The notes under the pieces are model-generated. The model had not been told where the DNA came from, searched no databases, and saw only the letters and a list, made by a program, of their open reading frames with translations. A stretch of 25,956 nt of DNA from Escherichia coli (GTDB lineage Bacteria; Pseudomonadota; Gammaproteobacteria; Enterobacterales; Enterobacteriaceae): assembly GCF_003334785.1 (NCBI RefSeq), contig NZ_QOWV01000029.1. One strand, 5' to 3'. Of this stretch, positions 23,236 through 25,956 are shown piece after piece. Positions within the stretch are counted from its first letter, which is position 1; each line of letters starts with the position of its first letter. Both the position numbers and the translations under genes were made by a program.

Positions 23236-23671
23236 GATAACTTCTGCTTTCCAGTATTCCAGAAGATGACGTTTTTTTTCTGATAATAAAAATGTGCCAA
23301 TATGGAAATAAGAAATCGGATTTTTTATCAGCATACGCAAATTTTCAGAAAACAATGAAGACAGATGTATTTTATATACACAGATAAAACCGCGCAAGAG
23401 ACAGGGTGATACAGAAAAGTAACTATTTTTAGCTATAGTATTATTGGTTTTACCTATTTTTGTGATTGTATTTCTGTATATTTGACATTGAGTCTCTCAG
23501 AATCGGTTTCTCGAAGTGACGAGCGTTCAGAATGGAGACAAATAAATTCGGGAAACGAACCTTCACGGTAAGTTTTGTCACATTTATCATCCCTAAACAT
23601 GAGAATTATCACCAAAACTAACCACCCAACAAACGTAAGCGTGCAGCAAGAACCGTATTGACGGGGATGTG

Positions 23672-25210
23672 TTATTCAGTCGGCAGTGCTACGCGCCAGG
23701 GGAGCAGTTCGCCGACCCGGTTTATCGGCCAGTCGGCTATGACGTCAAGGACATAGCGGAGGTAGCTTTCTGGCTCCACTCCGTTCAGTTTGCACGTCCC
23801 GATCAGGCTGTACAGCAGCGCTCCCCGCTCTCCTCCATGATCCGAACCGAAGAACAGGTAGTTTTTGCGGCCCAGACTGACCATCCGCAACGCATTTTCA
23901 GCGATGTTATTGTCCGCCTCAGCCCAGCCATCATCTGCATAGTACGTCAGCGCCGGCCACTGGTTCAGGGCGTATGCGAACGCTTTCGCCAGTTCTGAGT
24001 GTCGCGACAGGGTTTTCATCTTTTCACGCAGCCAGCTTTCCAGGGATTTCAGCAGCGGTTTCATTTTCAACTGACGTTCGGCAAGGCGCTGCTCCGCCGT
24101 CATTCCCCTTATCTCTGCCTCGATGGCGTACAGTTCGCCGATCCGTTTCAGCGCTTCCTCCGTCAGGGCTGACGGGGTGCGAACGTGCACATCGTGGATT
24201 TTACGGCGGGCGTGAGCCCAACAGGCGGCTTCCGTTATCCGGCCATCCCGGTACAGCTCGTTGAACCCGGCGTATGCATCCGCCTGCAGTACACCACTGA
24301 ACCCCGCAAGATGGGTCTGCGGATGGATGCCTTTTCTGTCCGGGCTGTAAGCGAACCACACCGCCGGCGCCAGCGTTGACCCGGCGTTACGGTCGTCACG
24401 AACGTAGGTCCATAACCGCCCGGTCTTCGTTTTCTTATTGCCTGGCAACAGCACCGGGACAGGCGTGTCATCAGCATGGAGCTTACCGTCAGTCAGCACA
24501 TAGTCCTGAAGCGCTTCTTCCAGCGGTGACAGTAGCCGGCAGCATGCATCCACCCAGCCCGACAGCAGTGAACGACTCAGCTCCACGCCCTGGCGGCCGT
24601 ACATTTCAGACTGGCGGTACAGCGGGGTGTGCTCTGCATACTTTGAGATCAGCACGCGGGCCAGCAGCCCCGGTCCTGCGATACCCCGCTCGATGGGCCG
24701 TGAAGGCGCGGGGGCCTGCACGATGGCATCGCACTGAGTACAGGCATGCTTTTCACGTACAGTCCGGATAACCCGGAAGACGCTGCGCATCAACTCCAGC
24801 TGTTCGGCGGCATCCTCACCCAGATAGCTCAGTGAGCCTCCACATTCCGGGCAGCATGACGCTGCCGGCAGCAGCCGTTTTTCATCGCGGGGGAGTGATT
24901 CGGGGAACGGTTTGCGGGTGCGGGTTTGACGCAGCGGGCGCTGCACGGCCGGGTCGTCAACCCGACCGGTAAGGGTATCACTTTCTTTCTGAAGTGCCTT
25001 CAGGTCAGCTTCCATCTGTGCGATACGACGGGAGACTTTTTCGGAGCGGCTGCCGAAGTTCATCCGGCGCAGCTTATCCAGCTGTGCCTGCAGATGGTCT
25101 ATTTCGCGTTCACGCTCGTTCAGCTTTTCCAGCAGGGCACGGTTCAGCGCCTCCTGTTCGGCAAGGAGACGTTTCAGTGCATTGATATCGTCAGGAAGTG
25201 AGCTGCTCAT
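23672..25210 (-). CDS. IS66-family transposase TnpC (512 aa)
   Basis: Leucine-zipper-like N-terminus and CxxC motifs typical of IS66 Orf3, recognised from memory. Confidence 0.9.
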
Positions 25211-25258
25211 ACCGGGTATATTACCAGGCTCATTCAGCGTCGACCAGGATAAAGAGGC

Positions 25259-25606
25259 TTACAACATAGTCAGGGACGTAAGCAGTCTTTTAGGCTGCCG
25301 CCAGTCGATACCTTCAAGGAGCATCGCCAGCTGTGCCGGTGTGAGGAACACTTTGCCATCCCGGGCTGACGGCCAGGCGAAGCGGCCGCGCTCCAGCCGT
25401 TTGGTCAGCAGACACAGTCCATCGCCGGTAGACCAGAGGAGCTTTACCTGACCGCCATTACGCCCACGGAAGATAAAAACGTGACCTGACATCGGATCGT
25501 CTTTCAGCGTCGTCTGCACCTTTGCCGCCAGGCCGTTGAAGCCATTTCTCATATCGGTGATACCGGCAACCAGCCAAATTTTGGTCCCGGAAGGTAACGG
25601 GATCAT
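25259..25606 (-). CDS. IS66-family TnpB (Orf2), 115 aa
   Basis: MIPLPSGTKIWLVAGITDMRNGFNGLAAKVQ is the characteristic IS66 Orf2 N-terminus. Confidence 0.9.
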   Translation of the reverse strand: MIPLPSGTKIWLVAGITDMRNGFNGLAAKVQTTLKDDPMSGHVFIFRGRNGGQVKLLWSTGDGLCLLTKRLERGRFAWPSARDGKVFLTPAQLAMLLEGIDWRQPKRLLTSLTML

Positions 25607-25866
25607 CGCTTCAGTTCCTGTATCAGCAGAGTCAGGAGCTTTTCGCTGACATTGCCATTGAAGCGGAGCGTCCCGTGCCGGAACGTTACCTCACAGCTGA
25701 TACTGAGGGTTTTCGGGTCCTCTGCGAGCGATTCTGGCTGTTCGGCAGCTGCATCGAGAGTCACAGGAAGTAGCTGGGGGCTCTCTGAAGAAGGTAATAG
25801 CAGCTTTCCCTCGCGCCATTGTTGTCGCCATTTGAACAACAGATTGGCGTTAATGCCATTTTCAAG
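25603..25866 (-). CDS. IS66-family Orf1 (TnpA), N-terminally truncated at the junction with a second IS66-type end
   Basis: Frame is open to the junction at 25866 with no ATG (track uses TTG at 25839); overlaps tnpB start by 4 nt. Confidence 0.55.
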   Translation of the reverse strand, partial: LENGINANLLFKWRQQWREGKLLLPSSESPQLLPVTLDAAAEQPESLAEDPKTLSISCEVTFRHGTLRFNGNVSEKLLTLLIQELKR

Positions 25867-25956
25867 GTAAGCGACTCGTCAGAACCGTATTGATATTTAC
25901 TGAGAGCTCAGATCAACTTTCCAGGGCAACAGATCGCGTACCCGGTTTGCCGGCCA
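25867..25956 (-). mobile_element. Right end of a second, diverged IS66-family element (continues beyond window)
   Basis: 25867 GTAAGCGACTCGTCAGAACCGTATTGA parallels 23635 GTAAGCGTGCAGCAAGAACCGTATTGA in the same orientation. Confidence 0.6.
25897..25956 (-). CDS. 3' end of the second IS66-family tnpC (last 19 codons, WPANRVRDLLPWKVDLSSQ)
   Basis: Minus-strand translation parallels the first TnpC C-terminus [19 protein letters not shown]. Confidence 0.55.
   Translation of the reverse strand, partial: WPANRVRDLLPWKVDLSSQ

Follow-up and report, generated by a model that had tools for sequence, protein, structure and literature searches.

The 25,956-bp stretch of Escherichia coli DNA analyzed here (contig NZ_QOWV01000029.1; hereafter the window) ends inside a nested pair of insertion sequences (ISs) of the IS66 family. 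A copy of ISEc22 is interrupted in its tnpA gene by a second and distinct element of the ISCro1 type, of which the window holds the first 90 bp. We favor two sequential transpositions, first of ISEc22 and then of the ISCro1-type element into ISEc22 tnpA at a site that is probably non-random, and assign this reading a probability of roughly 0.93. The names ISEc22 and ISCro1 are those of the RefSeq/PGAP product lines and not of an alignment to ISfinder references. Nesting of two catalogued members of the IS66 family, on a plasmid with existing annotation, is in itself ordinary and already known.

Two Distinct IS66-Family Elements at the End of the Window

The right ends of both elements lie in the window. 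The motif GTAAGCG-N7-AGAACCGTATTGA occurs there exactly twice, at 23635-23661 and 25867-25893, both times on the plus strand as an earlier sequence-only reading of the window had noticed, and it was absent from 100 dinucleotide-preserving shuffles. A repeat search of the window returned the pair as a 30-nt direct repeat with 77% identity and a spacing of 2,232 bp. A second repeat stretch (23696-23731 versus 25921-25956, 81% identical) represents the homologous coding region for the C-terminus of TnpC. On the minus strand, 25894-25956 translates to WPANRVRDLLPWKVDLSSQ followed by a stop, in parallel to the C-terminus of ISEc22 TnpC. In the parent plasmid, the annotation assigns these nucleotides to the 3' end of a gene for an 'IS66-like element ISCro1 family transposase', and the diverged TnpC C-terminus that had been proposed after position 25897 is thus borne out.

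The parent plasmid is pWP7-S17-ESBL-04_2 of E. coli (NZ_AP022179.1; locus L001), which is 100% identical to window 15400-25956 over the 10,557 bases compared. Its RefSeq annotation lists an 'ISEc22 family' transposase and tnpB and, directly thereafter, complete 'ISCro1 family' tnpC, tnpB, and tnpA genes, all on the same strand. The full ISCro1-type element spans L001 10468-13166 (2,699 bp) and encodes a TnpA of 225 aa, a TnpB of 115 aa, and a TnpC of 523 aa (WP_000381395.1). Its termini are the imperfect repeats GTAAGCGACTCG... and GTAACCGGCTCA... with the consensus GTAA.CG.CTC....AACCGT. The presence of TnpA, TnpB, and TnpC, the repeats beginning GTAA, and the 8-bp target-site duplication (TSD) TTTTCAAG place the element in the IS66 family, with 90 bp seen within the window and the rest read in the identical plasmid. 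This ISCro1 copy is complete.

The first element (23635-25866) belongs to the same family according to its TnpC profiles and its tnpA-tnpB-tnpC layout, in which the ATG of tnpB overlaps the stop of tnpA (ATGA at 25603-25606). Its TnpC carries the Pfam domains LZ_Tnp_IS66, zf-IS66, DDE_Tnp_IS66 (3.4e-106), and DDE_Tnp_IS66_C. The remaining part of TnpA matches NF047595 and NF038385 (profile positions 30-113/113 and 114-189/190) with scores that, for a fragment, lie below the full-length cut-offs; the intact tnpA of ISEc22 in plasmid NZ_CP069544.1 (L002) encodes 126 aa. ISEc22 ends in imperfect terminal inverted repeats that begin with GTAA and align over ~28 bp (GTAAGCGT.CAGC..GAACCGT), its left end lies outside the window, and its 8-bp outer TSD CAACAAAC borders the element in both NZ_AP022179.1 and NZ_CP069544.1.

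The proteins of ISEc22 and ISCro1 share 58.7% (TnpC), 76.6% (TnpB), and 44% (TnpA, 126 versus 225 aa) identity, and the DNA is 69-76% identical in the alignable parts only. By these comparisons they are distinct members of the IS66 family and not copies of one element. The sequence-only reading had placed a second IS66 element inside orf1 (tnpA) of the first and in the same orientation, which holds; its view that this was a second copy of the same IS does not, given lengths of 2,699 bp for the ISCro1-type element versus 2,441 bp for ISEc22 and the divergence of TnpC.

ISEc22 Is Interrupted and Not Truncated

The order of events can be read from the sister plasmid NZ_CP069544.1, whose backbone matches on both sides and which carries an uninterrupted ISEc22 at the same site. 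Positions 6460-6467 of the sister locus (TTTTCAAG) align to both L001 10460-10467 and L001 13167-13174, which leaves a 2,699-bp insert in between. In-silico removal of this insert together with one copy of TTTTCAAG yields a 2,441-bp ISEc22 that differs from the sister copy by 3 mismatches. A target duplication hence borders the insert, which is absent from a locus that is identical in other respects. The missing 209 bp of ISEc22 comprise tnpA codons 1-39, the leader, and the left inverted repeat (IRL). Because they sit directly after ISCro1 in the plasmid, behind the second TTTTCAAG, the element is split rather than truncated; it looks truncated because the window stops 90 bp into ISCro1. The earlier statement that the left end and the beginning of orf1 are missing from the first element is therefore accurate for the window and wrong for the plasmid.

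In the proposed course of events, ISEc22 would have inserted between a serine acetyltransferase gene and a region with a RelE/Phd toxin-antitoxin system and repA, duplicating CAACAAAC. The host would have been an E. coli plasmid with an IncFII-type repA near the region. The ISCro1-type element would then have entered the tnpA gene of the resident ISEc22 at codon 39/40 in the same orientation and duplicated TTTTCAAG, a target that is probably non-random as it is a recurrent ISCro1 site in the tnpA gene of ISEc8 and ISEc22.

Over its left ~525 bp, which cover the IRL, tnpA, and the beginning of tnpB, ISEc22 shows 100% identity to ISEc8, compared with 72-93% in the remainder including tnpC (window 23635-25866 compared with L003 and L004). 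ISEc22 thus appears to be a mosaic related to ISEc8, a pattern suggestive of recombination among IS66-family members.

The insertion splits ISEc22 TnpA after residue 39, between ISISKLA and LENGINANLLFKW, within a stretch that can be read as a putative helix-turn-helix-like motif. The interrupted element retains both terminal repeats as well as intact tnpB and tnpC genes, and the upstream region with the left-end promoter is displaced by 2.7 kb. Transposition of IS679 reportedly needs all three open reading frames (ORFs), a result attributed to Han and colleagues in 2001. By analogy with IS679, the ISEc22 copy should no longer be autonomous because its tnpA is split and its upstream region displaced, and it would be mobile only with TnpA provided in trans. 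In annotation, this copy should be labelled as an interrupted and not as a partial element.

Recurrent ISCro1 Sites in the Left End of ISEc8 and ISEc22

The IS66 family is widespread, and its target selection appears to be poorly characterised. From the junctions described in the following, we infer discrete, orientation-independent hot spots for ISCro1 in the left end (~240 bp) of ISEc8 and ISEc22, which are well supported as a pattern. A 200-nt junction probe retrieved the identical junction, unbroken, from other records, some of them chromosomes; the host element in these is ISEc8. In direct orientation, the same junction is present in ISEc8 copies at three other loci (L003, L004, and L005). 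At the chromosomal site of L003, at least 25 of the genomes listed have an uninterrupted ISEc8 (80% probe coverage is reached by up to 61), and ISCro1 therefore arrived second at this locus as well. A search for the pre-insertion state of the plasmid site of L004 found none.

Direct-orientation recurrences could spread by recombination between IS copies, and for this reason the opposite orientation was tested. A synthetic query for the inverted junction gave a 100% single-piece match, and inverted ISCro1 with the same TTTTCAAG duplication was found at L012 and, as a 97.3%-identical ISCro1 variant, at L013. Three further sites (A, B, and C in Table 1) are each occupied in both orientations, in unrelated contexts and with an identical, perfect TSD per site. 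Independent insertions at an identical target position, which define a hot spot, are thus found at 4 sites. If ~15 positions per orientation are assumed in a searched span of ~600 bp, chance would produce ~0.4 coincidences versus at least 4 seen, a rough estimate that involves no formal test. A target motif was sought in ~10 TSDs and none was definable; the TSDs are weakly T-rich.

A bias toward the same, 'stacked' orientation was considered and rejected: synthetic junction queries at the tnpA end of ISEc8 retrieved 50 records in direct versus 49 in inverted orientation. A side control of the same design at the tnpC end of ISEc8 retrieved 0 direct and 30 inverted records, the latter amounting to ~5 spacings and mostly clonal plasmids of Shiga toxin-producing E. 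coli. A preference for the left end over the tnpC end is suggestive, in a comparison that is confounded by clonality and comes with no formal statistic.

We consider it rather likely, though well short of settled, that ISCro1-type elements are selective for discrete positions within the ~240-bp left end of ISEc8 and ISEc22 (5' part of tnpA, leader, and IRL tip) in either orientation, each event disabling the resident IS. If true, this would be an undescribed target preference of one IS66 member for another, in which either sequence or structure or else proteins on the end of the resident element act as the guide. No report of ISCro1 targeting ISEc8 or ISEc22 was found in a limited search of open-access papers. 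Recurrent insertions at fixed positions provide a natural target that is directly testable in a transposition assay and may be of interest for the study of transposon target choice.

Table 1. Features of the nested elements (window coordinates) and positions of ISCro1 in and near ISEc8 (ISEc8 coordinates). IRR, right inverted repeat; L numbers designate the loci compared.
Feature	Position	Strand	Remarks
ISEc22 TSD copy CAACAAAC	23627-23634		8-bp duplication by ISEc22 itself; other copy past window, beyond IRL; flanks TAACCACCCAACAAAC and CAACAAACAGCAGCGC on either side of the IS in L001 and L002
ISEc22 IRR, tnpC end, GTAAGCGTGCAGCAAGAACCGTATTGA	23635-23661	+	first 28 positions match other end of intact L002 copy well
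ISEc22, right-hand 2,232 bp of 2,441 bp (IS66 family)	23635-25866	-	99.9% identical to intact ISEc22 in NZ_CP069544.1 (L002 4236-6676); PGAP 'IS66-like element ISEc22 family'
ISEc22 tnpC, intact 512-aa DDE transposase	23672-25210	-	NF033517 transpos_IS66, 468 bits (cut-off 180)
ISEc22 tnpB, intact 115-aa IS66 accessory protein	25259-25606	-	NF033819 IS66_TnpB, 118.6 bits (cut-off 50)
ISEc22 tnpA 3' part, codons 40-126 and stop (87 codons), without first 39	25603-25866	-	C-terminal part of IS66 TnpA models
ISCro1 TSD copy TTTTCAAG	25859-25866		second copy 2,699 bp further, past window; L001 10460-10467 and 13167-13174; single copy in L002 6460-6467
ISCro1-type element, first 90 bp	25867-25956	-	IRR 25867-25893; tnpC stop and last 19 codons 25897-25956
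Site D (site of the window), TSD TTTTCAAG	ISEc8 2226-2233		direct L001, L003, L004, L005; inverted L012, L013
Site A, TSD GGTTCACA	ISEc8 2259-2266		direct L016; inverted L017
Site B, TSD TTTTCGCC	ISEc8 2318-2325		direct L018; inverted L019
Site C, TSD CATTTTTC	ISEc8 2338-2345		direct L020; inverted L021
Single ISCro1 position	ISEc8 2204-2211		L015
Single ISCro1 position	shifted ~1 bp from ISEc8 2204-2211		L022
Single ISCro1 position	ISEc8 2359-2366		L007
Single ISCro1 position	ISEc8 2373-2380		L006
Single ISCro1 position across IRL tip	ISEc8 2436-2443		L008 (H10407 chromosome)
ISCro1 positions outside ISEc8	246 bp and 291 bp away		L010 (246 bp), L009 (291 bp)

Alternative Explanations

Several points weigh against two sequential transpositions. 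The order of events on the plasmid is taken from one sister plasmid, and the same pair of plasmids would result if ISCro1 had been precisely excised from an ancestor with the nested state, though excision of this kind is much rarer than insertion. We infer the loss of ISEc22 autonomy from the requirement reported for IS679. Furthermore, homologous recombination with a pre-existing ISEc8::ISCro1 composite could have brought in ISCro1, as ISEc22 matches ISEc8 at 100% identity over 315 bp on the left and 209 bp on the right side of the site. The sole single-nucleotide polymorphism in these flanks is private to the sister plasmid and hence uninformative for transposition versus recombination. Such a gene conversion with a composite elsewhere in the cell, in place of a fresh transposition, appears unlikely to us. 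It would account for flanks in ISEc22 that match ISEc8::ISCro1 composites from other loci at 100% identity (1918-2232 and 4940-5148 in composite coordinates; 72-93% in the rest) and for ISCro1 copies that are 99.9-100% identical to each other, yet no marker separates both routes. The ISEc22 without insert has the same ISEc8-identical left end, so that the mosaic is older than the insertion, and insertion at the hot spots is shown independently by the cases in opposite orientation.

Sequential transposition of the two elements also has to be compared with the movement of a pre-formed 5,148-bp composite, i.e., an IS66 element with ISCro1 inside, as a unit via the outer ISEc22 ends. Composites that share the inner junction do occur at more than one locus, and the outer 8-bp TSD is perfect and particular to each of them (GCTGACTC in L003 and GTCTATCT in L004). 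However, the ISEc22 at this site of the sister plasmid is uninterrupted and has an identical outer TSD, the site of L003 is the one that holds an uninterrupted ISEc8 in other genomes, and the host elements of L003 and L004 differ at 9 positions. Movement as a unit is thus rejected for the window plasmid and for L003, where uninterrupted host elements occupy the same sites, and we regard it as very improbable overall. The notion that there is no second element, and that the sequence from 25867 onward is either another end of the first one (inverted or otherwise) or a repeat by chance, can be practically dismissed. It draws on the 77% similarity of the end motifs, but the motif is direct and not inverted, a distinct tnpC 3' end follows it, and the plasmid holds a full tnpC-tnpB-tnpA set with a different IRL. 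The sequence past the window end, which had been proposed as a check, therefore reveals a full second element and refutes an inverted end of the same one.

Observations at Related Loci and Elsewhere in the Window

Two records, NZ_CP173493.1 (L005) and NZ_OZ546925.1 (L012), share the same chromosomal locus with the same internally deleted ISEc8 and carry ISCro1 at TTTTCAAG in opposite orientations, which may reflect either two independent hits or a flip in situ. In NZ_AP042706.1 (L017, 6033-6400), the inverted ISCro1 is followed by a 184-bp fragment of the ISEc8 left end (ISEc8 2259-2442) that is present twice in tandem. On the chromosome of enterotoxigenic E. coli H10407 (L008, 4303-4318), ISCro1 lies across the tip of the ISEc8 IRL. 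The tip is duplicated there because the TSD CGCTTACC includes the last 7 bp of ISEc8 in addition to 1 flanking bp. In strain TW10590 (L021), ISCro1 occupies another site of this locus and is oriented the opposite way. In NZ_CM169488.1 (L011, 4593-7307), the TTTTCAAG junction is found on just one side of an inverted ISCro1, and CGTTGATA and a partial integrase gene form the other flank. This arrangement is indicative of a rearrangement that took place later between copies of ISCro1.

According to annotation, the window contains a third IS66-family element at 10408-12833 on the minus strand, assigned to the ISEc47 family (transposase, tnpB, tnpC). This element and IS1203 (8771-9984) both interrupt a umuC/impB-like translesion polymerase gene, fragments of which flank them. 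An inverted-repeat scan of the window gave no convincing terminal repeats for the ISEc47-family element. Near the IS cluster, a frameshifted gene of the ProQ/FinO family (21873-22467) and a short DUF6404 gene fragment (21309-21386) are annotated. A DUF6404 fragment also adjoins the right end of ISEc8 in L005 and L012.

Comparison with Known Systems

The first element resembles ISEc22 and ISEc8, IS66-family elements of E. coli, in the lengths of TnpA (126 aa), TnpB (115 aa), and TnpC (512 aa), in its GTAAGCG... repeats, and in its 8-bp TSD. It differs from catalogued ISEc22 in that the window has the right 2,232 of 2,441 bp only and that tnpA is interrupted. The inserted element resembles ISCro1 as it encodes the ISCro1-family transposase WP_000381395.1 together with a 115-aa TnpB and a 225-aa TnpA and generated an 8-bp TSD. 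ISCro1 was first named in Citrobacter rodentium ICC168, where it has expanded to 24 copies (PMC3072379), and it has been described at an 'IS hotspot' in the afa promoter of E. coli sequence type 131 (PMC8764528). The ISCro1 insertion in sequence type 131 measures 2,824 bp (PMC8764528) compared with 2,699 bp for the element found here, which is identified by annotation only and may be an isoform or have different boundaries.

On plasmid pEntH10407, adjacent ISEc8 and 'ISEc8-like' elements, the latter with ORFs of 225, 115, and 523 aa, have been noted descriptively (PMC2762410). In a parallel to the nested pair studied here, an IS66 element with proteins of these lengths adjoins the tnpA end of ISEc8 there, but the position is unlike that in the window, and the paper speaks of multiple insertions only and claims no specific target site (PMC2762410). 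In our queries, the H10407 plasmid is among the matches to junctions in inverted orientation.

The repeated entry of one mobile element into a defined position within another is a feature shared with IS4321 and IS5075. These members of the IS1111 family target the terminal repeats of Tn21-family transposons by means of a DEDD transposase, at a single site and in a single orientation. In contrast, ISCro1 is a DDE element of the IS66 family that occupies several discrete sites in either orientation and generates ordinary 8-bp duplications.

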